Positions 30,784 through 64,000 of a stretch of 64,000 bases of DNA are shown here, piece after piece. The DNA comes from a virus. Positions within the stretch are counted from its first letter, which is position 1; every line of letters starts with the position of its first letter. The notes under the pieces are model-generated. The model saw nothing but the letters and a program-made list of their open reading frames with translations, searched no databases and was not told where the DNA came from. The translations under genes were made by a program, and so were the position numbers. The DNA lies in the IMG/VR virus record IMGVR_UViG_3300025012_000055, positions 1 to 64,000 of that record; one strand, 5' to 3'.

Positions 30784-31020
30784 GTGGGGTATGTTGATAG
30801 ATGGATAGGAGATTGCATTAATCATCCAAATAATGAAACAAAACATCAATGGCAATTAAATTCTTTTGATACATATTATCGGTTAAATGGTGGTGAGTGG
30901 GTTAATGATAGGGAAATTGGAAGAGATATTTATATTAATTTACAACAATTTAGGGAAGAATTTTCAGCTGATGAAATTTGGGATATAACATTAAAAGAAA
31001 CATTAAAAAATGATAAATAA
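30784..31020 (+). CDS. hypothetical protein
   Basis: ORF; start uncertain. Confidence 0.5.
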   Translation: MGYVDRWIGDCINHPNNETKHQWQLNSFDTYYRLNGGEWVNDREIGRDIYINLQQFREEFSADEIWDITLKETLKNDK

Positions 31021-31038
31021 TTTAAACCTTATAAAATT

Positions 31039-31632
31039 ATGGAAAAATCACATGAAATAATATATATTGATGATTATGCAATAATTGTCAGTGATGACGA
31101 TATTGAAATTGGAGATAGGAGATTGGATTTATTTAACATGACAATAGGTTTTTGCATTAATGAAAAAGACAAAACTTTTCTAAATAAACGCCTTAAAGGT
31201 GTTGTTGTATTTAAGAAAATTATTGCATCAACTAAATTAACTTGGATACCTGAAACTCCATTGTTTAGTTTACCTAATGAAATTAATAAATTAATCAGAG
31301 AATATTTTAATGGAAGCAATTCAATCAATTTAGATATTTATGAAAATAAAGATTTTGCTGAATTTATTTACAAAGCAGTACAAAAAAAGTATTCAGAAGA
31401 AGATTTGAGAGATGCCATTATGTATGGTTATCAAACTTGCATGAGAGGAGGAAATATTGATAAAGATAAATATGTTGAATCTCTCAATAAATCTAAAAAA
31501 CCTATAAGTTGTATAGTTGAATATGAAACTATTTGGGCAAGAAATACAGATAGGAATGTACCCACAGAAGCAGATTTTGATTATAAACCAAAAATAGAAA
31601 ATGGTAAACTTGTAATAACGAAATTTAATTGA
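31039..31632 (+). CDS. hypothetical phage protein
   Basis: KKIIAST and KKYSEEDLR motifs. Confidence 0.7.
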   Translation: MEKSHEIIYIDDYAIIVSDDDIEIGDRRLDLFNMTIGFCINEKDKTFLNKRLKGVVVFKKIIASTKLTWIPETPLFSLPNEINKLIREYFNGSNSINLDIYENKDFAEFIYKAVQKKYSEEDLRDAIMYGYQTCMRGGNIDKDKYVESLNKSKKPISCIVEYETIWARNTDRNVPTEADFDYKPKIENGKLVITKFN

Positions 31633-49778: not shown

Positions 49779-50063
49779 ATGAAATCAAAAGAAGATTATT
49801 TTATTGAGTTATTAAAAGTTTTAAAACCAAAAACTCTTAATGAACATCCAGATTATATATTTTATGTTTATAAAGATAAACTTTATATTGAATATAATAA
49901 AAAAACTAACCATGCCTGGGTAGATTATAATAGAATATGGAAAATTTTTTCATCCAAATATCATTGTAATTCTCAGGAAATCAAGAAGATAACAACTGAC
50001 CTGTTGGAAGAACATTTAAAATTGAAGGGAGTAACAACTATGGGCTTTGTCCATATTTTCTGA
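49779..50063 (+). CDS. 94-aa protein whose 3' end overlaps a CRISPR-like unit
   Basis: LEEHLKLKGVTT is encoded by the repeat; the stop lies in the spacer. Confidence 0.75.
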   Translation: MKSKEDYFIELLKVLKPKTLNEHPDYIFYVYKDKLYIEYNKKTNHAWVDYNRIWKIFSSKYHCNSQEIKKITTDLLEEHLKLKGVTTMGFVHIF

Positions 50064-50091
50064 CTGCCGTTGGAAGAACATTTAAAATTGA
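50003..50091. CRISPR. mini CRISPR-like array: 36-nt repeat, 30-nt spacer, 23-nt partial repeat
   Basis: GTTGGAAGAACATTTAAAATTGAAGGGAGTAACAAC (50003-50038), spacer TATGGGCTTTGTCCATATTTTCTGACTGCC (50039-50068), GTTGGAAGAACATTTAAAATTGA (50069-50091); no cas gene in window. Confidence 0.6.
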
Positions 50092-50095
50092 TAAG

Positions 50096-52252
50096 ATGAT
50101 AAAAACAATAACATATAAAAAATACAAAGATTTATTAAAACAGAATCTTAATGGGTCCCCAGTAAATATAATAGAACATAGCAATTTTGTAAAAAATTTA
50201 TTTAAATTAGACAAAAAAGTTAATGACCAATTACAAAATAAAAAATATTCAAATAGTTCATGGTCAATTAGAAAACTTGAAATTGATAATTTTTTAAGTT
50301 ATGGAAAAAATAATGTTATTGAGTTTGATAAATTAAATGGATTAGTAGGAATTTTTTCTAAAAATTTTATGGGGAAAACGGTGCTGTGTATCGATTCTTT
50401 ATTGTTTTTATTTTTCAATACAACAACCAGAACATCAAAAAGTGAAGAAATTTTTAATTTATATACAAAGGATGATATTGTAAAAGTAAAAGGTTATATA
50501 AAAATTGATAATTCAAATTATATTATTGAAAGAGAAATAATAAGAAAATGGAAAAAAGATGGGACACCAAATTGTAGTACTGAATTAAATTTTTATAAGG
50601 AATTAGATAATGATATAATAGAAAATTTGGAGGGGGAACAAAGACAAGAAACTGATAAAATAATCAAAAGTAAAATTGGAGATATGGAAGATTTTATTAT
50701 GACTATTTTTACCACTGGTGATAATCTTATGAATTTTATTGAAACAAAACCCACAGAAAGAGGATTATTGTTGTGTAAATTCCTTGGTTTAAATATATTC
50801 AAAGAGAAAGAAGAAATATGTAAAACAATATTTAATGATTGGAAAACAACATTAAAATCAAATTTATATAATATTCCGACTTTAAAAAGTGAAATAGAAG
50901 AATTACAATCAGAAATAAAACAAAAAGAAACTCAGTTAAAAGAAAATAAAGATAAGTTAGTTATTGTTGAAAAAAACATAAAAGATACAAAAGAAACAAA
51001 GGATTCTTTATTATCTTCATTACATCAGGATATTGATGACAAATTATTAAAATCAGATCCTTTATTAATTGAAAATAAAATAAGTGCAATAGAAAAAGAT
51101 GTAACTAATAAAAAAAATGAATTAAAAGAAATTAAATTTAAAATTGATAATATTAAAGTAACATATAGTAAAATAGAACATGAAAAATTAATACAAAAAG
51201 AAAGAGAACTATCCTCAAACGTAACAATATTAAAAAATGATATTGAAAGATTAGAAAAAGATATAAAAGAATTAAAAGAAGGAGAAATTTGTTCCAAATG
51301 TGGTCAATCATTAAAAGGTATTGATCATTCAAAAGAAATAAAAGAATTAAAAATTAAATTAGAATCAAATAATTTATCATATAAAAAATATAAAGAAGAT
51401 TTGAATGGTACAGGACAACAATTAAAAGAATATAATGAAAATAAAGATAAAATAGAACAAAGAGATAAACTCCAACTTAAATTTGATAGAACCGAAATTG
51501 AAATAGATTTATCAAATATAAATTTACAAAAAGAAAATGATAATTTAAAAAACTATCATAAAAATATTGATAAAATTAATCAAAATAATAAAACAAATGA
51601 GAAGATAAGAGATATTAATTTTAAGGTTCATCAACAAGAAACAGATGAAAAAGAATTAATATCAATAATTAGAGAATTTGAAAATATTATTTTAAATAAT
51701 AATAAGGATATTGAAGATAAAATAAAAATAGGAAAAGAAATAAGAGAAGAAGAAAAAATTTATAAAGTTTTTACTATCTATTTAAGTTTGATGGGAAAAA
51801 ATGGAATTTCCAAATCAATTTTACGTGATATGATTCCAAAATTAAATAATGAACTATCCAAATTATTGGAAGGAGTTGCAGAATTCACAGTTGAAGTATC
51901 AATCAATGAAAACAACCAGGAAATGGTATTGGATATGAAAGACAATAAAACTGGACTGATTAAATCATTAAAAACGGGTTCTGGATATGAAAGAACCATT
52001 GCCTCACTTGCATTAAGAGTAGTTTTAAATAAAATAAATTCTCTACCAAAACCAAATTTTATTATTTTTGATGAGCCGTTTGAAAAAGTATCAGAAGAGA
52101 ATTTACAGGAGATGAGTTATTTTCTGGATAGAATAAAAAAGTATTATGATTTAATATTTTTGGTAACATTTAATTCTTTGGTAAAAGATTGGGTATCAAA
52201 TGTTATAACAATAGAAAAAATAAATAATATTTCTACAATTAATTTGAATTAA
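50096..52252 (+). CDS. sbcC: SbcC/Rad50-like recombination ATPase (T4 gp46-like)
   Basis: NFLSYG, variant Walker A NFMGKT, coiled coils, zinc hook CSKC, GSGYE signature, FDEPF. Confidence 0.9.
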   Translation: MIKTITYKKYKDLLKQNLNGSPVNIIEHSNFVKNLFKLDKKVNDQLQNKKYSNSSWSIRKLEIDNFLSYGKNNVIEFDKLNGLVGIFSKNFMGKTVLCIDSLLFLFFNTTTRTSKSEEIFNLYTKDDIVKVKGYIKIDNSNYIIEREIIRKWKKDGTPNCSTELNFYKELDNDIIENLEGEQRQETDKIIKSKIGDMEDFIMTIFTTGDNLMNFIETKPTERGLLLCKFLGLNIFKEKEEICKTIFNDWKTTLKSNLYNIPTLKSEIEELQSEIKQKETQLKENKDKLVIVEKNIKDTKETKDSLLSSLHQDIDDKLLKSDPLLIENKISAIEKDVTNKKNELKEIKFKIDNIKVTYSKIEHEKLIQKERELSSNVTILKNDIERLEKDIKELKEGEICSKCGQSLKGIDHSKEIKELKIKLESNNLSYKKYKEDLNGTGQQLKEYNENKDKIEQRDKLQLKFDRTEIEIDLSNINLQKENDNLKNYHKNIDKINQNNKTNEKIRDINFKVHQQETDEKELISIIREFENIILNNNKDIEDKIKIGKEIREEEKIYKVFTIYLSLMGKNGISKSILRDMIPKLNNELSKLLEGVAEFTVEVSINENNQEMVLDMKDNKTGLIKSLKTGSGYERTIASLALRVVLNKINSLPKPNFIIFDEPFEKVSEENLQEMSYFLDRIKKYYDLIFLVTFNSLVKDWVSNVITIEKINNISTINLN

Positions 52253-52261
52253 AAATAAACT

Positions 52262-52329
52262 ATTGACTTTTTAATTTATTTTATTTATATTTGTAATTTA
52301 GATTATATTTATAAACAAGTTCTTTGAAA
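52262..52329 (+). promoter_or_regulatory. sigma-A promoter plus boxA-like GTTCTTTGAAA
   Basis: ATTG-N20-TATATTTG (52262-52293); boxA-like at 52319-52329. Confidence 0.65.
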
Positions 52330-52335
52330 TTAAAA

Positions 52336-52480
52336 GATATTATTTATTTAAGTGTTGGTCTTGGAATAATCCAGAAGTAATATAATAGGAGAAACTTAAT
52401 TGTGTTATCCCTTCCCATCAACCGTAGTACGTAGTATTACAACGAAGGATAAAAACACAGCTAAAATAAATAATTATATC
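52336..52480 (+). ncRNA. candidate structured RNA upstream of tmRNA
   Basis: End-to-end pairing plus nested stems 52401-52414/52444-52459 and 52424-52430/52434-52440. Confidence 0.45.
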
Positions 52481-52484
52481 ATAT

Positions 52485-52895
52485 GGGGATGACAGGCATT
52501 GACGTGATCAAAGTAGTCATAAAATATGTGTTTGGCATTCTGGAAAAGACAGAAGAATCGCTTAAATGGCGAATCAAACAAAGGACTCTCAAATGAGATT
52601 GCAAGGTTCTTGGTGTCAGATGAAAATCTGATTTTCAAAAATCAAGAAATTGAATTTGAAATTGCTTAACAAGGTTAAGTCAATTATATTGGAAACAGGA
52701 TAGAGTTAAACTGAATAATCGGGAACAGATTTTAACTGAACATGTTTGTATAATCCAAACAATAAAATAAATCCTGATTAGTTTAGGGTAAAAGTTTGGG
52801 AACGATTCTTTAAAAATTGAACAAAAAATAACACTAAAAAAATATTTTATGTTGAAAGATTAACGGACCCGGTTTTCGAATTACCGGCATCTCCA
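52485..52895 (+). ncRNA. ssrA: tmRNA
   Basis: GGGGATG/CATCTCC-A acceptor with G3-U, GACAGGCATTGAC 5' motif, T-arm-like CCGGT-TTTCGAATT-ACCGG, tag frame 52568-52669. Confidence 0.92.
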
Positions 52896-52964
52896 CTTTT
52901 TAATCCTTAACGATTAGGCTTGTTAGAGGTTTTTATTTAAAATAATTCACTTTTTATTGATAAT

Positions 52965-53552
52965 ATGAAAGTAGAACCAATATTAAATCAAATACTTGCA
53001 GAATCATCATTATCAAGAGTATGGAATCATACAAATAATGATGATACTTTTGGTATTATTTCTGCATTCAAATTAGATAATTATTGGGTTGAAAATATAA
53101 TTTTACATAGTAATTTAAAAAAAGAAATTAAAAGTAAAGGATATGGTTTCATAGAGTTAGATAGTGGATATAGTTATCTTGATAATACTAATGAGGAAAT
53201 ATCGGTTAGAGAAAGATCATATTTTATTCCAAAAATTACATTTAAAGATATTACTGAATTAGGTAAAAAATATGAACAAGAAACTATTATATTTAAAGAT
53301 AATGAATTTTTTATTTTAGTTAAACCAGATGGTACTATAGAAAAAACATTTTTAAAAGGAAACGGTTATAATTTTAAACCAGAGAATTTAAAAAACGCAT
53401 GGAGTCAATTTATTAGAAGTAAAAACAAAAATGCAATTAAAAAATTTACTTTTAATGTCCAAGAAAGAATTATACCATCAAGAACCGATTCTTATAAAAT
53501 GTTAGGAGAAAATAAAGGTTTAGCAAAAGTAAAATATATTAATTTATTTTAA
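52965..53552 (+). CDS. conserved phage hypothetical protein
   Basis: ESSLSRV..IISAF..ERSYF..LGKKYEQE pattern. Confidence 0.75.
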   Translation: MKVEPILNQILAESSLSRVWNHTNNDDTFGIISAFKLDNYWVENIILHSNLKKEIKSKGYGFIELDSGYSYLDNTNEEISVRERSYFIPKITFKDITELGKKYEQETIIFKDNEFFILVKPDGTIEKTFLKGNGYNFKPENLKNAWSQFIRSKNKNAIKKFTFNVQERIIPSRTDSYKMLGENKGLAKVKYINLF

Positions 53553-53558
53553 AATTTT

Positions 53559-54176
53559 ATGAATAATTTTTTAAAAAATTTTAGAAGATTATCTGGAATT
53601 AAAGAACTTTCATTAACTGAAGAATTTACTGGTTTCAAAAGAATTCATGTTTTAGAAACCGTTGGCAGAGGAATATCCTCTTTACAGCTTAACGGTATTT
53701 CTATTAACAGAGATAATTCAAAAGATAATGTAATAAATTATCAAATAAAAGAAGGAATATTAACAGAAGAAAAAGAATTTGTTTTCCCGGAAAATCAAAA
53801 AGGTGGAATTATTGTTTTTTCTATTGATGTTAATAAAAAGTTTGAATATAAAAATTTAATTGATAAAATTAAAGAATGGTTTAAACAAAAATATCAATCA
53901 TTATTAAACAGAATATTTAAAGATAAAAAATTATCAAAAATTATAAGTAAACATGAAGAAATAACTGGATTTAGCATCGGTAAATTTTTTAAAGGAAGAT
54001 ATAAATCTCCTAATGGAAAACATTATGATGAAACAAGTACATCAATTGAAATAATTGGTATTGGTTCTGAATTATTGGAAATTGTTGCATCAAAAATTGC
54101 TAGTGAATTTAATCAGGAAAGTGTATTAGTAAAAGATTATATAAAAAATGAAATATATTTAGCAAATAAAAAATAA
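53559..54176 (+). CDS. hypothetical protein
   Basis: FNQESVLVKD C-terminus. Confidence 0.75.
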   Translation: MNNFLKNFRRLSGIKELSLTEEFTGFKRIHVLETVGRGISSLQLNGISINRDNSKDNVINYQIKEGILTEEKEFVFPENQKGGIIVFSIDVNKKFEYKNLIDKIKEWFKQKYQSLLNRIFKDKKLSKIISKHEEITGFSIGKFFKGRYKSPNGKHYDETSTSIEIIGIGSELLEIVASKIASEFNQESVLVKDYIKNEIYLANKK

Positions 54177-54250
54177 TTGATAAATAATTTGGATATGTCA
54201 TTTATTTTACTTACCTTTGTATTTTAAAATTAAAATTAACTATTATTTTT

Positions 54251-54451
54251 ATGGATACAAATATAAAAGAACAAATTGATAATATGGATTATGAATCAAT
54301 GTTAAGATTATGGAGATTTAGTCCTGCTGGCCATTCATTATTTCAAGGAGAATCTGGTGAATATTTCAGTAAAAATATGAAAGAAAAACGTGATAAATTA
54401 CCAAATGAAGAACATCCAATCATATCAAAAAGAATAGGTTGGGAAAAATAA
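54251..54451 (+). CDS. small hypothetical early protein
   Basis: Follows promoter 54188-54219. Confidence 0.75.
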   Translation: MDTNIKEQIDNMDYESMLRLWRFSPAGHSLFQGESGEYFSKNMKEKRDKLPNEEHPIISKRIGWEK

Positions 54452-54462
54452 TTCATTTTATA

Positions 54463-54494
54463 CTTGTTTATTTTAATTATTTTACTTACTTTTG
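54463..54494 (+). promoter_or_regulatory. sigma-A promoter of tRNA operon 1
   Basis: CTTG-N20-TACTTTTG. Confidence 0.8.
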
Positions 54495-54518
54495 TATCTT
54501 GAAAGTATTTATAATAAA

Positions 54519-54590
54519 ATGAAAAACATAAATTTACATAATCTCCCACAGCTACCCAGTAATAAACATTGGGGTGGAAAACTTATGTAA
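54519..54590 (+). CDS. leader peptide 1 (MKNINLHNLPQLPSNKHWGGKLM)
   Basis: Short ORF between promoter and terminator; CTC CCA CAG CTA CCC run. Confidence 0.8.
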   Translation: MKNINLHNLPQLPSNKHWGGKLM

Positions 54591-54617
54591 AAAAATTAAA
54601 AAAATACAATAGATTAT

Positions 54618-54657
54618 AAACCCTGATGTTCAATAAAAAAGTCATCAGGGTTTTTTT
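54618..54657 (+). terminator. attenuator terminator 1
   Basis: AAACCCTGATG/CATCAGGGTTT stem plus T tract. Confidence 0.85.
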
Positions 54658-54675
54658 ATTGATAAAAAATTAAAA

Positions 54676-54749
54676 TATGGTGTTAGTTCAGAGGCAGAAC
54701 GCTACATTTGGGATGTAGAGGTCGAGATATCATAATTCTCACACCATAC
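54676..54749 (+). tRNA. tRNA-Pro(UGG)
   Basis: TATGGTG/CACCATA; CTACA-TTTGGGA-TGTAG; atypical T loop. Confidence 0.8.
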
Positions 54750-54765
54750 AAAAAAATTAAAAAAT

Positions 54766-54839
54766 ATTCCAGTATCCCAATTGGTAGAGGATATAGTATT
54801 AGAAACTATAAAGTGAGAGTTCGAATCTCTCCTGGAGTA
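54766..54839 (+). tRNA. tRNA-Leu(UAG), short variable arm
   Basis: ATAGT-ATTAGAA-ACTAT; GAGAG-TTCGAAT-CTCTC. Confidence 0.85.
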
Positions 54840-54840
54840 C

Positions 54841-54914
54841 TACCGGATCTTCTAATTTTGGCAGGAAAGCACCCTTTGAAGGTGATAATATAGGTTAGAT
54901 CCCTACTCTGGTAA
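54841..54914 (+). tRNA. tRNA-Gln(UUG)
   Basis: TACCGGA/TCTGGTA; CACC-CTTTGAA-GGTG. Confidence 0.8.
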
Positions 54915-54944
54915 CTACAAAAATTAAAAAAATATTAGATAATA

Positions 54945-54976
54945 CTTGTTTATTTCAATTATTTTACTTACCTTTG
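54945..54976 (+). promoter_or_regulatory. sigma-A early promoter
   Basis: CTTG-N20-TACCTTTG. Confidence 0.8.
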
Positions 54977-55018
54977 TATTCTAAATATCTGAATTAATAA
55001 CTTAAAAACCTAAAAAAA

Positions 55019-55225
55019 ATGAAAGATAAACCACAAAAGCCGAAATTGAATACTACTGTTGTTGGCGGTAGTTTTTATTGGGTTAGACCATTTCAAGGAG
55101 ATGAATTTGAACCTGCAAAGGCTAGAGATAGATATGAGAATGGAGAGCTATATTTCTGCTTTACAAACGGTAGTGTGTTGGAAGTAGAGCGCGCTTGGGA
55201 GGTTGAGCCATTAAATTTCAGCTAA
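55019..55225 (+). CDS. small cassette-like hypothetical protein
   Basis: ORF ending at GCTAAC. Confidence 0.65.
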   Translation: MKDKPQKPKLNTTVVGGSFYWVRPFQGDEFEPAKARDRYENGELYFCFTNGSVLEVERAWEVEPLNFS

Positions 55226-55280
55226 CGGTTTTGGGATTGCTGTCAGGTTTCTTACGGATTAACAACTAAAATATAATTAT

Positions 55281-55520
55281 ATGAACGAAGAATTAAGAGT
55301 GATATCACAAAGCTATTGCGGAATGACACCGAAAGATAAAGGATGCAAAACTTGGGCTGAGATGCAACAGAAAATGGCAGATGAATTGGAATGTGTAGTA
55401 AAAAATTATATTGTCCAAGCAAATGTTAGCGGACACTTGTGCCAATGTGGAAATCCGATTGCCAGAACGGAGTGCGATGATTGTTTAGACAATAGAATTA
55501 GATGCAAGTTAGAAAATTAG
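55281..55520 (+). CDS. small cassette-like zinc-finger protein
   Basis: CQCG..CDDC. Confidence 0.65.
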   Translation: MNEELRVISQSYCGMTPKDKGCKTWAEMQQKMADELECVVKNYIVQANVSGHLCQCGNPIARTECDDCLDNRIRCKLEN

Positions 55521-55602
55521 GTACAATTTCCGCTAACGCATCGGAGATTTATGAAGGATTTTTTACGACTTAAACTACAAATTTAAAAATATAAAAAACA
55601 CA

Positions 55603-55845
55603 ATGACAAAAGAAGAATTGATTACAAAGCAACAACTGGAAATAGAGCAGTATCAAATTGCAATAGAAGAAAACAAAAAACTGCTGAAAAAGATAAAACT
55701 AAATTTCATTGCGATAGGGATGCCGTTAAATGATAACCTATTGCAATTTGATAAGAAGCAGATAAAATGGTGCTTGGAAACATTAGAAATGATTGAACAA
55801 ATTAACTGTACTGTGCTTGACTATGAGGGTGTGTGGGCGGGTTAA
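55603..55845 (+). CDS. small hypothetical protein
   Basis: ORF. Confidence 0.7.
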   Translation: MTKEELITKQQLEIEQYQIAIEENKKLLKKIKLNFIAIGMPLNDNLLQFDKKQIKWCLETLEMIEQINCTVLDYEGVWAG

Positions 55846-55881
55846 AAAGTTTGCGTATAAGTAGGGGATTGTCGCAATATT

Positions 55882-55913
55882 ATTGATTTTTTAAAATATT
55901 TTACTTATATTTG
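55882..55913 (+). promoter_or_regulatory. sigma-A promoter of tRNA operon 2
   Basis: ATTG-N20-TATATTTG. Confidence 0.8.
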
Positions 55914-55938
55914 TACTTTGAAACTATTTATTAAGAAA

Positions 55939-56019
55939 ATGAAAAACTGGTTAAACATATCAATTCATAGTAATAGTCGTAATATTATACGACCTGGAAG
56001 GGGTATGTTTATACAATAA
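55939..56019 (+). CDS. leader peptide 2 (MKNWLNISIHSNSRNIIRPGRGMFIQ)
   Basis: Short ORF between promoter and terminator; codons match the downstream tRNAs. Confidence 0.82.
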   Translation: MKNWLNISIHSNSRNIIRPGRGMFIQ

Positions 56020-56038
56020 TCATTTTTAAAAGATATAT

Positions 56039-56075
56039 AAAAAACCCCTTGGATTAAGTTTTTAAGGGGTTTTTT
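56039..56075 (+). terminator. attenuator terminator 2
   Basis: AAAAAACCCCTT/AAGGGGTTTTTT. Confidence 0.85.
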
Positions 56076-56080
56076 AATTT

Positions 56081-56154
56081 TGGTCTGTAACTCAGAAGTT
56101 TAGAGTGCCAAGCCGTTAACTTGGAAGCCGGGATGGCAGAATTCCCCAGACCAG
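56081..56154 (+). tRNA. tRNA-Asn(GUU)
   Basis: TGGTCTG/CAGACCA; CCAAG-CCGTTAA-CTTGG; atypical T loop. Confidence 0.8.
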
Positions 56155-56170
56155 CTGGAAATATAAAAAA

Positions 56171-56254
56171 GGAAAAGGACTGGCATGGACGAAGAGATAG
56201 TCTTGAAAACTATTGTGTGTAAAAACATCGTGAGTTCGATTCTCACCTTTTCCG
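56171..56254 (+). tRNA. tRNA-Ser(UGA)
   Basis: GGAAAAG/CTTTTCC-G; ATAGT-CTTGAAA-ACTAT; long variable arm. Confidence 0.85.
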
Positions 56255-56268
56255 CTTTTTTAAAAAAC

Positions 56269-56339
56269 AGGTTCTTGGTGTAATGGCAGCATCTGAAATT
56301 CCAAACTTCAGGGTATGGGTTCGAATCCTATAAAACTTG
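56269..56339 (+). tRNA. tRNA-Trp(CCA)
   Basis: TTCCAAA loop; ATGGG-TTCGAAT-CCTAT; mismatches in stems. Confidence 0.75.
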
Positions 56340-56340
56340 C

Positions 56341-56426
56341 GGAAAATAAACCAATCAGGGTATTGGGCCTATTTGCTAAATAGTGCGTTCTGTAAAAAGA
56401 ATGTGTTTCAAATACTCTGTCCTCCG
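56341..56426 (+). tRNA. tRNA-Ser(GCU), degenerate
   Basis: TTGCTAA loop in CTAT/ATAG stem, long variable arm; weak acceptor and T stems. Confidence 0.6.
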
Positions 56427-56437
56427 CAAAATTATAT

Positions 56438-56510
56438 TGACCAGTAGCTCAATTGGTGGAGCAACATTCTGATGAAATGAAGGTCGAAGGTTCAAATCCT
56501 TCCTGGTCAA
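56438..56510 (+). tRNA. tRNA-Ile(GAU)
   Basis: TGACCAG/CTGGTCA; CATT-CTGATGA-AATG; GAAGG-TTCAAAT-CCTTC. Confidence 0.85.
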
Positions 56511-56519
56511 CAAAAAACT

Positions 56520-56592
56520 ATTTTCTTAGTTTAACTGGATAAAATATTTGGCTACGAACCAAAAGATGAGAGTTCGAATCTTTCAGAAAATA
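56520..56592 (+). tRNA. tRNA-Arg(ACG)
   Basis: ATTTTCT/AGAAAAT; TTTGG-CTACGAA-CCAAA. Confidence 0.88.
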
Positions 56593-56607
56593 CATTATAA
56601 TTAATAT

Positions 56608-56682
56608 GGTGCTATTGTTGTAAATTGGTGAGCATAGAAAACTGTGAATTTTCAGGTAAAGGTTCAATTCCTTTATGGCACC
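56608..56682 (+). tRNA. tRNA-His(GUG) with encoded G-1
   Basis: G-GTGCTAT/ATGGCAC-C; GAAAA-CTGTGAA-TTTTC. Confidence 0.88.
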
Positions 56683-56690
56683 CAATAATC

Positions 56691-57383
56691 TTAATTTAAT
56701 AATTCAAAAACTTCTTTTATTCCTTCACTAGCTTTTTTATTAATATAAGTAATTTCCATTCCAATTTTACTTAAACTTTTAACTGGGTTTGGATCAATAA
56801 AAAATACTTCACAAGATAATTTTATATAAGTTAACATTTGAAAACAATAATGGATAAATAAAGAAGTTCCAATTATTATTAAATAATCACATTTTTCAAT
56901 TGTTTTATATGATTCTTCAATATTACAAGGATATTCCCCAAACCAAACAACATGAGGTCTTAATTGTGAGCCATTTTCACATTTATCACCCAACTTTATA
57001 TCATTATAACCACAATCATATATTAAATCTTCATCTGATGAGCTTTGAGATTTTGTAAGTTCCCCATGAATGTGAATAACATTTGAAGAGCCACCCCTTT
57101 CATGTAAATTATCAACATTTTGAGTTATCACGGTAACATCAAAATTATTTTCAAGTTCTGCAATTAATTTATGCGCCAGATTTGGTTTTACATTTTCCAG
57201 TTGCCTTCTTCTTTCGTTATAAAAATCTAAAACTTTTTGTTTATCTTTGTGCCATGCACTTATTGTTGCAACATCATCTATTTTATGGTTTAACCATAAA
57301 CCATTTTTTCCTGTCCTGAATGTTGGGATGCCAGATTCCTCACTTACGCCCGCACCAGTAAAAACAACTATTTTCTTTTTCAT
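56691..57383 (-). CDS. cobB: Sir2-family NAD-dependent deacylase
   Basis: TGAGVSEESGIPTFR, TQNVDNLHE, HG, RPHVVWFGE, IGTS. Confidence 0.95.
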   Translation of the reverse strand: MKKKIVVFTGAGVSEESGIPTFRTGKNGLWLNHKIDDVATISAWHKDKQKVLDFYNERRRQLENVKPNLAHKLIAELENNFDVTVITQNVDNLHERGGSSNVIHIHGELTKSQSSSDEDLIYDCGYNDIKLGDKCENGSQLRPHVVWFGEYPCNIEESYKTIEKCDYLIIIGTSLFIHYCFQMLTYIKLSCEVFFIDPNPVKSLSKIGMEITYINKKASEGIKEVFELLN

Positions 57384-57444
57384 TTATTTGTTTTTTTAAT
57401 AAATATTTATAAATAAGAATATATTTATATAATGATATAATAAC

Positions 57445-58143
57445 ATGAAAGATCAAATATCCAGAATGAAAGAATTGATTAATTATAATATTAATTATGG
57501 TTATATTAATGAAGAAATGGAAACTTCTGATAATTTTATAAATAATACATTTCAAGAATATAAAGAAAAAAATGCAATTGCAGTTGAGGTTAGCATTGAT
57601 TCAGAAAATGATGTTGATTACAGATTAGCACTTATATTAAGATTTACAAATGTTAGTGGATATGATGAATTAGTATTTTATTTTTCATTAATAGATAAAA
57701 ATAATCAGTTTGTAAAAGGAAAAGAAAGTATTTATAATAGAGAAGAAGCAAATAAATATTTACCAAAAAAATTACAAGGTAGTATTTCTTTTTTTACTAA
57801 ACTAAAAGAAATGTTTAAAAAATTAATAAATATGGAAACACCAGATATATTTTTTATGGAAACATATGAAGATTTTATAAGTGAAAGATTATTAAATCCT
57901 TATAGAAATTTAATTCCATTAATATTGGAAAATGGATATCTTTTGGAAAAAGAAGGAATATCCCATGATAAAAAGAAATATTATTGGAAATTTGTAAAAA
58001 AAACAAATCAACAAATAAAAGAAGATAAGGAATTTGAATATTTTATAAATAATTTTAAAAAAGATGATGAATATTGGGAAAAATTTAATAAAGAATCAAG
58101 AATAATTATTGAGAAAATGTATGGAAATAAAAAAATTATTTAA
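57445..58143 (+). CDS. hypothetical protein (possible internal virion protein)
   Basis: ISRMKELI N-terminal motif; paralog at 27542. Confidence 0.75.
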   Translation: MKDQISRMKELINYNINYGYINEEMETSDNFINNTFQEYKEKNAIAVEVSIDSENDVDYRLALILRFTNVSGYDELVFYFSLIDKNNQFVKGKESIYNREEANKYLPKKLQGSISFFTKLKEMFKKLINMETPDIFFMETYEDFISERLLNPYRNLIPLILENGYLLEKEGISHDKKKYYWKFVKKTNQQIKEDKEFEYFINNFKKDDEYWEKFNKESRIIIEKMYGNKKII

Positions 58144-58146
58144 AAA

Positions 58147-59124
58147 ATGAAAACTTTAAAATCCGTTGGTGAGTTCCCAAATATAAGAAAAGGAGAAATC
58201 AAAAAAGGAAATAATAATATCTTGTCTTCCCTCAAAATTAAAAATGATTTAAACAGAGATATTTGGGATGAAAATGATCAACTAAAAGAAAATATAAAAA
58301 AAAATCTTTTGGAAGTTGGAAAAGATTTCTTTGATTATCTTGAATTAACCACAGAAATTAAAGATATAATAATAACAGGTTCTCTTTCAAATTATAATTG
58401 GTCCAAATATTCGGATATTGATTTACATGTTATTTTTGATTTTAATGATGTCAAAGAATCTGATGATATAGAATTTATAAAAGAATACAGCAATGCAAAA
58501 AAATCAATTTGGAATGATACCCACAATATAAAAATAAAAGGATTCGAGGTAGAAATATATGGGCAAGATAAAAATGAGGTTCATAAATCTAATGGTATTT
58601 ATTCTGTTTTAAATAATAAATGGATAATAAAACCAATAAAAAAAGAATTTAAAGTTGACTATGAATTAATTAAAAATAAAGCAAATCAATTAATGAAAGA
58701 AATTGATAATTTATCTTCTGATAATAATTTAATAAAAAAAATTGATAAGATTAAAGATAAAATAAAACGTATGAGAGAATGTGGTCTTGAACAGGGTGGG
58801 GAATATTCCATTGAAAATTTAACTTTTAAAATGTTAAAAAGAAGTGGTTATTTAAAAAAACTAAATGATATTAAAAATAAATCTTATGATAATGAACTCT
58901 CAATTAAAGAAAAGTTAAATACAGAAGAATCTGATATGGGTCCAACTATTGGAGAACCAAAGGATAAACATGGATATGATGATTCTGGGAATGAAAATGC
59001 AATGGGTTGGTGGGGATTGGAAGGTGGTGGAAGTTCCGATTATTCCTCATCTTCCTTTGATTCAAGTTCCGATATTTTTGATTTAAAAGAATCATTAAAA
59101 AAAGAATTAAGAAAATATTTATAA
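58147..59124 (+). CDS. Pol-beta-fold nucleotidyltransferase
   Basis: TGSLSNYNWSKYSDIDLH, VEIY, GEYSIENLTFK. Confidence 0.85.
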   Translation: MKTLKSVGEFPNIRKGEIKKGNNNILSSLKIKNDLNRDIWDENDQLKENIKKNLLEVGKDFFDYLELTTEIKDIIITGSLSNYNWSKYSDIDLHVIFDFNDVKESDDIEFIKEYSNAKKSIWNDTHNIKIKGFEVEIYGQDKNEVHKSNGIYSVLNNKWIIKPIKKEFKVDYELIKNKANQLMKEIDNLSSDNNLIKKIDKIKDKIKRMRECGLEQGGEYSIENLTFKMLKRSGYLKKLNDIKNKSYDNELSIKEKLNTEESDMGPTIGEPKDKHGYDDSGNENAMGWWGLEGGGSSDYSSSSFDSSSDIFDLKESLKKELRKYL

Positions 59125-59152
59125 CTTTTCTTTTTATGTAATATTTATATAA

Positions 59153-59268
59153 TGAAGTTTGTTTAAATTGGTTAATAAAATAATCAATAAAATATTAAAA
59201 ACCCAATACCATTCATTTTTTTCCAATATTAATCAATTGGCAAACTTCAAAATGGGTGTGAGGGTTTT
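59153..59268 (+). promoter_or_regulatory. structured 5' leader (long stem plus pseudoknot-like pairing)
   Basis: 59153-59177/59227-59249 and 59198-59213/59251-59268. Confidence 0.55.
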
Positions 59269-59294
59269 ATATTTTTTTAAAAAAATAAACTTAT

Positions 59295-60308
59295 ATGATA
59301 ATAACAAAATTTATAAAAATAAAAATTGGGGGTGGAAATATAAAACATTTTAAAAATTTAGGATATAAAATAAAGCGATTGGATATTATTACAATACCTA
59401 TTGAACACCTACAAAAAGGAAGTCATCAAAAGATTAAAGTAAAATGTGATGTTTGTAATATAGAAAAAGAAATAGAACATAGATTATATTTAAAAAATAC
59501 TAAAAATTATACTATTGAATATTCTTGTTCTCAAAAATGTGCTTATAATATAGGTAAAAATCAAAAAACTTGTTTAAAAAAATATGGAGTGGAATTTACA
59601 TCTCAAATAAAAGAACATAAGGAATTAGTAATAGAAACATGGAATAACAAATCAGAAAAAGAGTTAGAAGAAATAAATAATAAACGTAATAATACTAAAA
59701 AAGAACTTTATGGAGATAAGTATTATAATAATATGGATAAAAATAAACAAACAAAATTAAAAAACCATGGAGATGAAAATTATAATAACAGAAATAAATT
59801 TATAAAAACTTGTTTAAAAAAATATGGAGTAGAAAATGTTTTTCAAGTGGAAGAAATTAAAGAAATATCTAACCAAACTATATTAAACACTTATGGTGTT
59901 AAACATGTCATGCATTCAGATAAAATTAAAAATAAAGCATTTGAAACTAGATATGGAATAACTCATGAAAAATTTATTGAAAGATTATCTGATTTCTTAA
60001 AATATAGAAAAAAAATTTTAAAAATAACAAATCAGCAATTATTATTTTTATTAAAAAATTATAATAAAAGAGGAAATACTAAAATAAAAGGATCTTATCA
60101 TATTGATCATAAATTTTCAATTTTTGAGGGGTTTGTACAAAACATATCTCCACACATTATCGGTAATATAGTTAATCTTGAAATGTTAACTTGGGAAGAT
60201 AATTGTAGTAAACATACTAAGTGTTCATTAACAAAAAAAGAATTGTTTAATTTATATGACAATAAAAATAAAATATTGAAACAACTAGAAAAAGAATATA
60301 AAAAATAA
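59295..60308 (+). CDS. HNH-like endonuclease; paralog of 24437..25348
   Basis: KVKCDVC, KTCLKKYGVE and NHGDENYNNR repeats, HIDHKFS..IGNIVNL..N..K. Confidence 0.8.
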   Translation: MIITKFIKIKIGGGNIKHFKNLGYKIKRLDIITIPIEHLQKGSHQKIKVKCDVCNIEKEIEHRLYLKNTKNYTIEYSCSQKCAYNIGKNQKTCLKKYGVEFTSQIKEHKELVIETWNNKSEKELEEINNKRNNTKKELYGDKYYNNMDKNKQTKLKNHGDENYNNRNKFIKTCLKKYGVENVFQVEEIKEISNQTILNTYGVKHVMHSDKIKNKAFETRYGITHEKFIERLSDFLKYRKKILKITNQQLLFLLKNYNKRGNTKIKGSYHIDHKFSIFEGFVQNISPHIIGNIVNLEMLTWEDNCSKHTKCSLTKKELFNLYDNKNKILKQLEKEYKK

Positions 60309-60364
60309 TAAAATATAAATTTTTTTCTATTTAACTAATATTTATAATAAAAATATAAAAAATT

Positions 60365-61258
60365 ATGCCAAATTATTCAGAACAATATTTTAATCAAGAT
60401 GCAGGGCAACCTGCAGGTTTTTCTGATCAGGACAGAACAATTATAAAAGAAATTGAAGTTAGTGGGGATTCCACCAATAAAAAGTACATGGCCCAGCTTG
60501 TTGTTGTAAGGGGTGCTGGGGTTTCTCTTTCTACAGGAGATATTAATGTGGAATTATCACATTCAACCGATAGTGTTAGATTGGGAGATGCAACCACATT
60601 AACAAAAGTTGCTACTGGTGGATTTCTACTTGTTTCTGGGCAAACGGAAATAAAAAATGTTTCAACTGCTGCTGGCGGATTTTTACTTGTTTCTGGGCAA
60701 ACATCAATAAAAGATGTTGCAGTTTCTGGCAGTAGTTTACAGGTAATTTTGACTGATAATGAAGGTATGATCGGTTCTGTTGTGGGAAAATCTAAAAAAC
60801 CACAAATTTCCATAACTCGCCCATCCAATACTACTACCTATTCGATTTTGGATACAATTAATTCTGGAACTACCGTTATGGAAAGATTTAATATTGCCAG
60901 ATCAAATAACAAACTAGTGTGGTGTTTGGGGGGACATATGTCAAGTTCCGTTTCCGCAGCAACTTCTTTAAATTGTGATCTTCATATATTTTCATCTGGA
61001 TTAACCGTAACATCAGATAATACTTTATGGCAACCAAATGTTAATGAATTAACACATCATTTAGGTGTTGTATCATTTTCAAGTTGGAAAGTTTTAGGAA
61101 ATAGATCTGTTTCTGAAGGTAGTATTGAACAACCTTTTCTTTTAACTCCAGACCCAGATAATCCCTCTTCCGTTTGGAGTGAACTTATTGCCAGAAATGC
61201 TTATGTTCCTTCAAGTGCCGAAATATTAACTGCCAGTTTGGATATTTCACAAGATTAA
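60365..61258 (+). CDS. putative virion structural protein
   Basis: Ser/Thr/Gly-rich; GGFLLVSGQT repeated. Confidence 0.6.
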   Translation: MPNYSEQYFNQDAGQPAGFSDQDRTIIKEIEVSGDSTNKKYMAQLVVVRGAGVSLSTGDINVELSHSTDSVRLGDATTLTKVATGGFLLVSGQTEIKNVSTAAGGFLLVSGQTSIKDVAVSGSSLQVILTDNEGMIGSVVGKSKKPQISITRPSNTTTYSILDTINSGTTVMERFNIARSNNKLVWCLGGHMSSSVSAATSLNCDLHIFSSGLTVTSDNTLWQPNVNELTHHLGVVSFSSWKVLGNRSVSEGSIEQPFLLTPDPDNPSSVWSELIARNAYVPSSAEILTASLDISQD

Positions 61259-61297
61259 TCGGAAAAATTATTTGAATTTAAATTAAATATTTAAAAT

Positions 61298-61552
61298 GTG
61301 AAAAATAAAATAATTAGATTAACAGAATCAGAACTTAAACAAATTATTGAACACCAGGTTTATTCAAATGTTTGGAAAAAGGATTTTTATGGATATATTA
61401 AAAGATTGAAGGGTTTAATTGATGGAATTAATAAATCATTTGATTCAATGGATGATATTTCTTTTGATGATGAGATTAAGGAAAACTTTATTGAGGATTT
61501 AAAAAATGTTGGAAAAATGGTTAAGATTTCTGTGGATAAATTGGAAAAATAA
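61298..61552 (+). CDS. small protein with MKNKIIRLTESEL motif
   Basis: N-terminal motif shared with 5946 and 10881 genes. Confidence 0.65.
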   Translation: MKNKIIRLTESELKQIIEHQVYSNVWKKDFYGYIKRLKGLIDGINKSFDSMDDISFDDEIKENFIEDLKNVGKMVKISVDKLEK

Positions 61553-61574
61553 TTTTTAAAAATATAATTAACTA

Positions 61575-62303
61575 ATGAACCCCAGACTAAGAAAAACTCT
61601 TTTATTCAATACTAAGAAATTTAAGAATCAATATAGCTTTCTCTTTGATGGAATTAATGAATATATTGAAAGAAATAATGCAATAATCAATGGAACTCCT
61701 GCAACTTTTAGTGCGTGGATAAAGTTAAGTAGTTTAAATTTAGTTCAAAGAATAACCACAATAAATCAAAAATCTACTACTACTAATGTATTATCAATCT
61801 TTATTGATGCAAATAATAAGGCCAATGCACAGCATTTTGATGTGGATGGTGTAGCGGCATTAAGTACAACTGTTTTGACAACCAATACTTGGTATCATAT
61901 AGTCGGGGTTTTTACAAGTGATTCTTCAAGAACTATTTACGTAAATGGGGTTTCGGAAAATACAAATACAACAGTTCAATCCGCAATGACTGGATTAGAT
62001 TACACATCTTTTGGTTATATTGCTTGGACCACTAATATTCAGTTTTTTAATGGAAATATTGATGAAGTAGGTTTTTTTAACACCAATTTAACCGCAGCAC
62101 AAATAACTGAAATATATAATAATGGCAAGCCCAAAGACTTAAAAAAACATAGTATGGTAAATAATCTTGTTAGCTATTTTAGAATGGGAGATAAATCAAC
62201 ATGGGATGGAACAAATTGGACATTAGTGGATCAAAAAGGAACTAATAATGGAACAAGTGTGAACATGGAATATAATGACAGGAGTCTTGATGTAAAATTA
62301 TAA
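61575..62303 (+). CDS. LamG/concanavalin A-like lectin domain protein
   Basis: FDGINEY, TFSAWIK, WYHIVGV, IYVNG, FNGNIDEV. Confidence 0.9.
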   Translation: MNPRLRKTLLFNTKKFKNQYSFLFDGINEYIERNNAIINGTPATFSAWIKLSSLNLVQRITTINQKSTTTNVLSIFIDANNKANAQHFDVDGVAALSTTVLTTNTWYHIVGVFTSDSSRTIYVNGVSENTNTTVQSAMTGLDYTSFGYIAWTTNIQFFNGNIDEVGFFNTNLTAAQITEIYNNGKPKDLKKHSMVNNLVSYFRMGDKSTWDGTNWTLVDQKGTNNGTSVNMEYNDRSLDVKL

Positions 62304-62351
62304 TGATAAAAAATAAATTTTTAACTTAATATTTATAAATAAAATAATAAC

Positions 62352-62618
62352 ATGGTAGAAAATCTATATAAAATATTACCAATAACATCTGTTAGGCCAG
62401 AATGGTTTGGTGTTGCTACTGTTGAAAAATCATTAGAAAATTGTAGAAAAAATAATGATGGAACCAAGGTTATATTGAAAATCCCAGTTGGAGTCAAAGA
62501 TATTAATGATGTTCCTGACAAATGGAAACAAGATTTTATAAACAGTTCACCTTTTATGAATCATTCTCAAATTTTAATTGAAATGAGTAAACCTGAATGG
62601 GTCTCTAATATGATTTAA
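62352..62618 (+). CDS. small hypothetical protein
   Basis: RKNNDGTKVILK..EW. Confidence 0.7.
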   Translation: MVENLYKILPITSVRPEWFGVATVEKSLENCRKNNDGTKVILKIPVGVKDINDVPDKWKQDFINSSPFMNHSQILIEMSKPEWVSNMI

Positions 62619-62735
62619 TTAATTTTTAAAAAAAATAAACATATATTTATAATAAAATATAAACTTTTTTAAACTTACGTATATTTATAATAAAAAAATA
62701 AGAAATAAAAAATAATAATATTTAAATAAAAAATT

Positions 62736-63944
62736 ATGAACGACAAATCACAAAATTCAGAAAAAATAGTAGGAAAAGAATACTATGACAGATTAAGGGT
62801 TTTATCTGGAATACCACTGAAAGAAGAAAAAGAAAATAAAGATAATACAAAAACTGTTATAAAAGAAGGTATTATTAGTTCTCCAGAACTTATAAAAGAT
62901 TCTATTAAAAAAGCATGGGGTAAAAATTATTCAATACTTCGTGAGAATCATAAATATTTTATCAAGACAGCCACTGGAACTAAAAAACCTGAACAATTAG
63001 ACGAATCAGATTTTACATATATTGGTGGACTTGGAAATAAACTTAAATATAGATATGATTCATTGGCTGAGGCACAAAAACAACTTAACTTTATAATGAA
63101 ATCTCTTAATGAAGCATATAATTGGGTTAGCCCAGACACAATGGTAAAAGAACAAGTAATTGGTGGTGAAGAAGAAAAACCAGATGAAGAAGAACCTATT
63201 GCTGAACCAGAAACAGAAGTATCGCCAGAAGCATCTGCAGGGGTGGAAGAACCTGTTGGTGATAATATTCCATCAGCAGAACCAGAAGGTGGAGTTGCTC
63301 CAGATGCTGGTTTGGATGAACCATTAGCAGAACCAGAAGTGTCAGCAGAACCAGAAGTTTCTGATGATTTGGGTGATGATTTAGGTGATGATTTAGAAGA
63401 TGATCCAGTTCAATTAATTCAATCATTAAAAGGAAAATTGGCACAAAAAATAAGGATGACCGAATTAACACCAGAAGCAACCAAGGACGTTTTAAATACT
63501 ATTATATCCGCTCTTGATTTACAACAAGTGGATCCAGATGATAGATTATCAATAGCAAAAAAAGTTAGAAAGGGTGGTTCTGTAGAAAAAGAAGTAGAAC
63601 TCCAAGAAGATTTTGGTGATAAATCAAAAGGAACACAAACTGTTGGGAAAGGAAAAGTTACAAGTACGGCTGGTGGTGGAACTACAGAAAAGAAAAAAGG
63701 TGAATTTGGTAAATCTGCCAAAGGAACTCAGTCAATGGGTAAGGGTAGATTAAAAGCAGAAAGTGTTGAACTTATTGAAAAATTGGTAAAGGAATCATTG
63801 CTCAAATATAGAAAACCTGTTGTTAATCAACAACCTGTTAAAAAAGTAGTTTCTGAAAATAAAAATAGAACTTTTACTTCAGAAAGGTCAGATTTAAAAA
63901 GGATTGAAAATCTTATTGAATCTGTTCTTAAAAAAAAAGCCTAG
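62736..63944 (+). CDS. acidic prohead core/scaffold-like protein
   Basis: RLRVLSGI start, long E/D/P-rich linker, FGxxxKGTQ repeats. Confidence 0.55.
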   Translation: MNDKSQNSEKIVGKEYYDRLRVLSGIPLKEEKENKDNTKTVIKEGIISSPELIKDSIKKAWGKNYSILRENHKYFIKTATGTKKPEQLDESDFTYIGGLGNKLKYRYDSLAEAQKQLNFIMKSLNEAYNWVSPDTMVKEQVIGGEEEKPDEEEPIAEPETEVSPEASAGVEEPVGDNIPSAEPEGGVAPDAGLDEPLAEPEVSAEPEVSDDLGDDLGDDLEDDPVQLIQSLKGKLAQKIRMTELTPEATKDVLNTIISALDLQQVDPDDRLSIAKKVRKGGSVEKEVELQEDFGDKSKGTQTVGKGKVTSTAGGGTTEKKKGEFGKSAKGTQSMGKGRLKAESVELIEKLVKESLLKYRKPVVNQQPVKKVVSENKNRTFTSERSDLKRIENLIESVLKKKA

Positions 63945-64000
63945 CGCTAAGCAACAAATAAAGGAAAGTATTGCCCCAAACGAAATTCTTACAATGTTTG

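Follow-up and report, generated by a model that had tools for sequence, protein, structure and literature searches.

Multivalent leader-peptide attenuators are found in enterobacteria, where those of ilvGMEDA (Leu/Val/Ile) and thr (Thr/Ile) stand beside trpL, hisL, pheL and leuL, and the attenuator of pheST, which encodes the phenylalanyl-tRNA synthetase of Escherichia coli, uses the leader pheM. Bacterial transfer RNA (tRNA) and ribosomal RNA operons are under stringent and growth-rate control exerted on promoters through guanosine tetraphosphate (ppGpp) and DksA; to our knowledge, regulation of the bacterial tRNA operons takes place at the promoter, and attenuation plays no part in it. Genes of tRNAs are the commonest translation-related genes in phages and, as far as we know, the control of their expression is essentially unknown. 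Full-text literature searches returned no description of leader peptides or attenuation ahead of tRNA genes. The present work concerns a stretch of 64,000 nucleotides (positions 1 to 64,000 of IMG/VR virus record IMGVR_UViG_3300025012_000055, hereafter the window), in which seven tRNA genes are preceded by an element (55898-56076) carrying, in order, a phage promoter, a 26-codon open reading frame (ORF), mutually exclusive hairpins formed by four segments (1:2, 2:3 and 3:4) and a strong terminator. On sequence grounds, this element is probably a ribosome-mediated (leader-peptide) transcription attenuator gating the seven tRNA genes as an operon, in a large phage whose promoters are of the Bacteroidota type. 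Most likely, the phage produces these tRNAs only when their supply to ribosomes falls short.

Results

Organization of the proposed attenuator and of the seven-tRNA operon

The source record (91,380 nucleotides, 25.8% G+C) encodes a tail sheath. Its completeness was estimated by CheckV at 28%, and it is therefore a fragment of a very large phage. The features of the unit, in window positions, are the following.

55883-55915, plus strand: phage promoter with a -33-like TTGATT (55883-55888), the conserved motif ATTTTACTTATATTTGTA (55898-55915) and, within it, a -7 box TATATTTG (55907-55914) of the Bacteroidota type
55939-56019, plus strand: leader ORF (leader 2), ATG at 55939 and TAA at 56017-56019, 26 codons and a stop, product MKNWLNISIHSNSRNIIRPGRGMFIQ
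55945-55992, plus strand: putative sensing block, codons 3-18, AAC TGG TTA AAC ATA TCA ATT CAT AGT AAT AGT CGT AAT ATT ATA CGA
55952-56011, plus strand: predicted 1:2 hairpin (anti-antiterminator), UAAACAUAUC with GGUAUGUUUA, enclosing GUCGUA/UACGAC (55976-55993), -22.6 kcal/mol, z -4.55
55998-56050, plus strand: predicted 2:3 antiterminator, AAGGGGU and UUUAUA with UAUAAA and ACCCCUU, -10.1 kcal/mol
56038-56076, plus strand: 3:4 intrinsic terminator and U tract, 16 pairs, loop of 7, -19.2 kcal/mol, z -3.93
56081-56154, plus strand: tRNA-Asn (GUU), Rfam RF00005 at 39.1 bits (gathering score 29) and hand-drawn cloverleaf, not called by ARAGORN with default or relaxed settings
56171-56255, plus strand: tRNA-Ser (UGA), ARAGORN at relaxed threshold, Rfam 33.9 bits
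56269-56340, plus strand: tRNA-Trp (CCA), ARAGORN default, Rfam
56341-56427, plus strand: tRNA-Ser (GCU), ARAGORN at relaxed threshold
56438-56511, plus strand: tRNA-Ile (GAU), ARAGORN default, Rfam 65 bits
56520-56593, plus strand: tRNA-Arg (ACG), ARAGORN default, Rfam 62 bits
56609-56683, plus strand: tRNA-His (GUG), ARAGORN default, Rfam

The terminator begins 20 nucleotides after the leader ORF and ends 4 nucleotides 5′ of the first tRNA gene, the order of the tRNAs being Asn, Ser-UGA, Trp, Ser-GCU, Ile, Arg-ACG and His. A preliminary description of this locus, made from the letters alone, had given coordinates and sequences that proved exact throughout, including codons 3-18.

Codons of the leader match the downstream tRNAs

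According to that description, 13 of the 16 codons of the block are read by the downstream tRNAs and all seven tRNAs, both Ser isoacceptors among them, are represented; this is indeed the case, the count of 13 holding under standard wobble. Arg is also encoded as claimed by CGN and not by AGA: the block uses CGT and CGA, both decoded by the I34 (inosine 34) form of tRNA-Arg(ACG), in a genome where AGA accounts for 74.5% of the Arg codons and CGT, CGC and CGA together for 11.2%. The proposed probability calculation was run on 1,000,000 simulated leaders drawn from phage codon usage, the background share of the 14 cognate codons being 0.218. The probability that the best 16-codon window contains at least 13 matches is about 1e-6 and that of covering seven tRNAs out of seven is 5e-4, so that the match is significant against shuffled leaders. 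Among the ATG-started ORFs of 20-35 codons, of which the genome has 443, leader 2 alone reaches the 13/16 or the 7/7 mark. At the amino-acid level, the six amino acids of the cluster account for 17 of its 25 residues (background 0.31, P = 1.7e-4). The match is specific to the reading frame, with 13 cognate triplets out of 25 in the ORF frame versus 0 of 24 and 6 of 24 in the two others.

Mutually exclusive RNA structures

The pairings put forward previously were all recovered. The 1:2 pairing joins AAACATATC (55953-55961) to GGTATGTTT (56002-56010) by eight Watson-Crick pairs and one G-U pair, with the inner GTCGTA (55976-55981) facing TACGAC (55988-55993). The 2:3 pairing joins AAGGGGT (55998-56004) to ACCCCTT (56044-56050) and TTTATA (56008-56013) to TATAAA (56036-56041), and the 3:4 terminator was borne out at 56038-56076. 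Over the whole leader (55921-56084), the minimum free energy (MFE) fold reaches -47 kcal/mol (z -6.26); it includes the 1:2 hairpin, which is possibly also a pause hairpin, and sequesters the start codon (55935-55942 pairs with 56020-56027). Segment 2, AAGGGGT (55998), is identical to the 3′ arm of the terminator (56064-56070) and both are complementary to ACCCCTT at 56044; hence, antiterminator and terminator are mutually exclusive. The genome has only seven copies of this 7-mer on this strand, and the complementarity between the 3′ end of leader 2 and its own terminator arm ranks 2 of 16.

The effect of a ribosome was modelled by masking its footprint, the RNA located 3′ of the footprint being folded alone and the 3′ arm of the terminator being withheld. 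A variant that allowed pairing across the ribosome was dropped, as it led to an artefactual closure of 1:2 around the footprint. With leader 2, the antiterminator forms when the A site is at codons 2-17 and not when it is at codons 18-27. This permissive window matches the cognate block (codons 3-18), and cognate codons occupy 14 of the 16 permissive positions versus 3 of the 9 others. In ribosome-free folding, 1:2 forms and the 5′ arm of the terminator is left without any upstream-paired nucleotide. As expected of an attenuator, the position of the ribosome thus decides the fold in this model: segment 2 would be freed by a ribosome stalled on the regulatory codons and masked by one that has reached the stop codon.

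Promoter of the unit and origin of tRNA transcripts

The 18-mer motif ATTTTACTTANNTTTGTA, which includes the Bacteroidota -7 box TAnnTTTG, is present in 17 copies in the 91-kb genome versus none in a reversed control, and every copy faces a downstream gene. The copy at 55898-55915 sits about 20 nucleotides 5′ of the leader ATG. Transcription probably starts near 55920, with the ATG about 19 nucleotides farther on. A position weight matrix (PWM) trained on the ATTTTACTTANNTTTGTA sites of the genome gives the leader 2 promoter a score of 31.4, real sites scoring at least 26.9. In the interval from leader ORF to tRNAs, the highest scores in the three tRNA units of the genome are -18, -31 (-30.9 at the seven-tRNA unit) and -19, and an internal promoter between terminator and tRNAs was rejected on these scores. 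One -7-box-like sequence, TAATTTTG at 56076-56083, was taken as a chance match; the corresponding start would fall within tRNA-Asn. With no promoter separating the terminator from the tRNAs (a gap of 4 nucleotides here), these tRNAs can be transcribed only by read-through of the terminator.

Proposed mechanism

Everything that an attenuator predicts at the sequence level was found: a promoter directly upstream, in-frame cognate codons, exclusive hairpins, no internal promoter and a stop codon at such a position that segment 2 would be covered by a ribosome terminating there. From the parts of the unit, their mutual exclusivity, the match of codons to tRNAs and the recurrence of the design described below, all read from sequence and statistics, we infer a mechanism in which the leader is translated and its folds are switched by stalling. 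Transcription would start near 55920 and a ribosome would translate the 26-codon leader while RNA polymerase proceeds. With an ample supply of aminoacyl-tRNA for Asn, Trp, Ser (both isoacceptors), Ile, His and Arg-CGN, the ribosome would reach the stop codon and cover segment 2 (55998-56013), 3:4 would form and transcription would stop 4 nucleotides before the tRNAs. When any polled tRNA is scarce, the ribosome would linger on codons 3-17, occupying segment 1 and leaving segment 2 free; 2:3 would then form before segment 4 is synthesized and the polymerase would read into the tRNA genes. If the leader is not translated, 1:2 would fold and termination would follow. Since the tRNAs produced would relieve the signal, the unit would be a negative-feedback controller of tRNA supply. 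The physiological trigger could be host tRNA depletion, a mismatch in codon usage or tRNA-cleaving defences.

Two other units in the same genome

The same design is found, in paralogous units, ahead of both other tRNA clusters of this genome.

54479-54915, plus strand: unit 1 (attenuator 1), with promoter 54479-54496, leader ORF 54519-54590 MKNINLHNLPQLPSNKHWGGKLM, terminator at about 54618-54657, then tRNA-Pro(UGG), tRNA-Leu(UAG) and tRNA-Gln(UUG)
88800-91380 of the record (G000; region L137), outside the window: unit 3 (attenuator 3), with leader MKQITTYFGGNGDGTTDAITIMARLC (ORF at L137 161-241), terminator, then Asp, Phe, Gly and Ala tRNAs

In unit 1, the complementarity between segment 2 and the terminator arm of that unit amounts to -12.1 kcal/mol and ranks 1 of 16, and the 3′ end of the unit 3 leader also ranks 1 of 16 with its own arm. 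When each of the three leaders was compared with each of the three clusters, the z values of the diagonal were 2.3, 4.0 and 2.1, and all off-diagonal values were at most 1.0.

Besides an L-P-Q-L-P run, leader 1 contains nine codons for cluster-2 amino acids (Asn, Ile, His, Ser and Trp), and leaders 1 and 2 have a common 5′ untranslated region and an MKN start; these shared traits could reflect cross-talk or common ancestry. Leader 3 has five Thr codons, yet no tRNA-Thr gene is present in its cluster. In unit 3, the Asp and Phe tRNA genes are split from those of Gly and Ala by a TnpB gene of 409 amino acids (PF01385, PF07282) on the opposite strand.

An ORF-free stretch next to the tRNA units (52278-52898) has its own phage promoter (52278-52295) and encodes a transfer-messenger RNA (tmRNA)-like RNA (52485-52898). 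The latter matches Rfam RF00023 at 17.7 bits, below the gathering score of 47 (E = 5e-5 in an 800-nucleotide search), and is not called by ARAGORN; its alignment includes an acceptor stem GGGGAUG/CAUCUCC and a T arm CCGG-UUUUCGAAUUA-CCGG. This RNA may be a divergent phage tmRNA. Its promoter and those of leaders 2 and 3 (window 52256-52295 and 55876-55915; G000 88906-88945) have the upstream sequence TATTGAYTTTTTARAAT in common and PWM scores of 27-31, below the 49-57 of mRNA promoters. A TATTTATWA box lies 3′ of the -7 box in four units, the tmRNA-like RNA and leaders 1-3. The promoters of these RNA units may form a separate promoter or temporal class.

An ortholog of leader 2 and a unit in a cultured phage

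An ortholog of leader 2 (leader segment ISIHINSIMNWRRNSSTGQGMFI) was found in a 360-kb phage (G022, L043 8757-8647, minus strand), where it precedes His, His, Trp, Ser-UGA, four Asn, Ser-GCU, Arg and Ile tRNAs, that is, the same set of amino acids as the cluster of leader 2. The two leaders have in common the segments ISIH and GxGMFI and an identical stretch of 13 nucleotides, GGTATGTTTATAC, which is the 3′ strand of hairpin 1:2. Segment 2 is GGTCAAG in G022 where leader 2 has AAGGGGT, and the terminator arm is CTTGACT versus ACCCCTT; judged from these sequences, the difference is a compensatory change of the predicted antiterminator. Between the terminator and the first tRNA gene of G022 lies an ORF of 57 amino acids (L043 8393-8566, minus strand); the attenuator would thus gate a small protein gene along with the tRNAs.

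One further unit was found in the cultured Cellulophaga phage phi19:1 (KC821607.1). It consists of a 30-codon ORF, MNNNTIHIQRLPQPKRFGEFAVYGSDGLIG, with the block H-I-Q-R-L-P-Q-P, followed by a terminator and by tRNA-Pro(UGG), Gln, His, Leu-UAG and Arg-ACG. The terminator lies at about 31024-31052 of the record. In the ribosome model, the permissive window of this leader extends exactly to the last cognate codon. The GenBank record of phi19:1 annotates neither the leader ORF nor tRNA-Pro(UGG) (L138 2133-2207, the region L138 1980-2207 corresponding to KC821607.1 positions of about 30904-31131).

Recurrence in related phages

A Sir2-like gene (phrog_2162, E = 5e-47; 56691-57383, minus strand) is convergent with the tRNA operon and ends 8 nucleotides from tRNA-His; no terminator was detected between the two. 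Homologs of this neighbouring gene served as handles to relatives: they led to 28 records of large phages, which have as many as 53 tRNAs each and whose tRNA regions were fetched. In eight related giant phages, a terminator and a small ORF were found to precede another 20 tRNA blocks, of which 18 are credible. For example, the leader MRTSSTLSLTSLQHLTRSENSTEV precedes His, Ser, Ser, Arg(UCU), Gln, Gln, Thr and Leu tRNAs, a leader containing QQPQDQD precedes Asp, Asp, Pro and Gln tRNAs, and one containing YYYEAE precedes Glu and Tyr tRNAs. Two terminator-preceded units, L043 Ser-GGA and L044 Phe-Phe, show no codon match and were rejected as ordinary gene ends; they were kept in the test of all 23 units and left out of the deduplicated one.

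The pooled tests were done on 15 non-redundant units from related phages (16 for terminator-arm complementarity). Leaders match their own tRNA set with a z of 2.84 versus 0.05 ± 0.37 for permuted pairings (p < 5e-6). The codon box used for Arg, Leu and Ser follows the isoacceptor present in 18 of 23 cases versus 9.2 expected (p = 2.3e-5), and in 10 of 12 versus 5.0 for Arg alone (p = 4.6e-4). Cognate triplets make up 43% of the triplets in frame versus 17-18% out of frame (p = 3.5e-21). The gap between stop codon and terminator is 19-34 nucleotides in all units, and leader 3′ ends pair with their own terminator arm at -10.6 kcal/mol versus -7.2 ± 0.5 with other arms (p = 5e-6). In ribosome-mask folding, cognate codons occupy 65% of the antiterminator-permissive positions versus 29% elsewhere (odds ratio 4.5, p = 5e-13).

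The synteny of the Sir2 gene at 28 IMG/VR and 80 metagenome loci (all at most 60% identical) revealed no syntenic tRNA cluster, an exact-pattern scan of viral contigs for the shared 5′ untranslated region gave no match, and blastn against GenBank phages gave tRNA-level matches only, one of which led to phage phi19:1. The six homologous leader pairs available for covariation, which are 77-87% identical or too diverged, contain only two to three double changes. In another phage (G025; L049, L050), the tRNA arrays are extremely sorted by amino acid, one block having 11 Leu and one Gln and another Ala and Arg; no leader-plus-terminator unit was found for either block.

Discussion

Alternative explanations

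The preliminary description had proposed that the leader senses tRNA species and not amino acids. Codon choice supports this at the level of isoacceptors, both in the CGT and CGA codons of leader 2 and in the Arg result of the related units. However, a ribosome reads aminoacyl-tRNA and, once stalled, is blind to the difference between an absent and an uncharged tRNA, so that the same architecture could sense general translational stress or amino-acid starvation through charging levels, tRNA output being tied to the state of translation and not to tRNA species. Six amino acids are polled, as in multivalent attenuators, and leader 1 also has codons of cluster 2, which would suit such a sensor. 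We nevertheless consider it improbable: CGT and CGA are used in spite of the predominance of AGA, the codon box follows the isoacceptor in most of the Arg, Leu and Ser cases pooled above, and each leader fits its own cluster and not the others of the same genome. Moreover, additional tRNA would not relieve amino-acid starvation and the feedback would therefore be lost. For the OR gate of the same description, additive multivalent sensing is the better term; most tRNAs are polled by only one to four codons.

It is very unlikely that leader 2 is instead an ordinary small phage gene followed by a terminator, with tRNAs produced by constitutive leak-through and a codon match due to coincidence or compositional bias. 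Asn, Ile and Ser codons are common in an AT-rich genome, and the GxGMFI shared by the peptide and its distant ortholog makes a function of the peptide possible in principle. However, permutation within and between genomes removes compositional bias and leaves the match at p < 5e-6; the match is also specific to the frame, confined to the antiterminator-permissive window and extended to rare codons. Stop-to-terminator spacing and complementarity of segment 2 with its own terminator recur in non-homologous units, and what is conserved to the letter between the G000 and G022 leaders is the DNA of GGTATGTTTATAC, a strand of 1:2. Riboswitches of the T-box type, which bind tRNA directly and need no protein, likewise precede translation-related genes and end in a terminator/antiterminator pair, but such an identity can be practically dismissed here. 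The Rfam search of 50000-64000 at E ≤ 1 returned no leader-family or T-box match, one terminator-like chance match apart, on which ground this and other known RNA families were rejected; furthermore, a single specifier cannot bind seven different tRNAs, and the ATG, the frame-specific signal and the fixed position of the stop codon indicate translation.

Several observations weigh against the attenuator that we propose. Taken alone, 2:3 (-10.1 kcal/mol) is not more stable than shuffles of the same 64 nucleotides (z -0.46) and it is weaker than the terminator (-19.2 kcal/mol); therefore, it can win only kinetically. The trp leader has a similar energy hierarchy, with a weak 2:3 and a strong 3:4. 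The ribosome footprint used in the modelling (A site -15 to +12) is an approximation. Within the sensing block, TTA and two ATA codons are not read by the cluster, and most tRNAs have one to four codons in the leader, scattered and not in runs, so the effect of any single tRNA may be small. The tRNA-Asn(GUU) is atypical, with C33 and not U33, a D loop without GG and the T loop GGCAGAA, and may be non-functional. Lastly, no close relative was found (neighbouring-gene proteins are at most 60% identical) and base-pair covariation for leader 2 consequently rests on a single ortholog.

Like tRNA-Asn, tRNA-Pro(UGG) of unit 1 (54677-54748) is unusual: its T loop is AUCAUAA, and it passes Rfam and is missed by ARAGORN. 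These two tRNAs may have non-canonical elbows, or may be anticodon-loop variants like those proposed to escape defences directed at tRNAs.

Significance

Taken as a whole, these results make it likely that Bacteroidota phages run tRNA genes through "codon checklist" attenuators, in which a block would be transcribed only when its own codons are read slowly, giving isoacceptor-resolved feedback on tRNA supply. If this is true, one phage could adjust to hosts with different tRNA pools, and the degradation of host tRNAs, or their cleavage by anticodon-nuclease defences, could be countered automatically by the circuit. These would also be the first tRNA genes whose regulation depends on how their own codons are decoded, in a direct and species-resolved homeostat. 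The unit would bear on why phage tRNAs are sorted into blocks, on the means by which a phage could detect that host tRNAs are depleted or cleaved and on the building of compact synthetic sensors for individual tRNA isoacceptors. It should also be emphasized that the design spans uncultured giant phages and phi19:1, a cultured phage with a culturable host, and is therefore testable at the bench.

Comparison with known regulatory systems

The global control of tRNA genes by ppGpp and DksA resembles the phage unit in that transcription is set by translational demand. Unlike the unit, it acts at initiation, is not resolved by codon or isoacceptor and involves no leader ORF. T-box riboswitches also sense individual tRNA species through a terminator/antiterminator switch, but they bind uncharged tRNA directly, without a ribosome and with one tRNA per element, whereas the phage leader has no T-box motif. 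As in pheST with its pheM leader, a leader peptide would sense the supply of charged tRNA and control a component of the translation machinery; however, the product of pheST is an enzyme that charges one tRNA, and those of the phage unit are seven tRNAs.

In architecture, the unit resembles the enterobacterial attenuators. These too have a short promoter-proximal ORF, in which the regulatory codons of several amino acids are enriched, and four segments that form 1:2, 2:3 and 3:4, with a terminator before the regulated genes. The phage unit differs from them by its phage origin, by its Bacteroidota-type promoter and by the lack of a match to any Rfam leader family, those for His, Thr, Trp and Leu included. 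It polls seven tRNA species, mostly by one to four codons each without runs, and its codons track isoacceptors. It would also regulate tRNAs and not biosynthetic enzymes, so that the loop would close on tRNA supply itself. Overall, the class of mechanism is known, and its use on tRNA genes with matching at the level of isoacceptors would be new.

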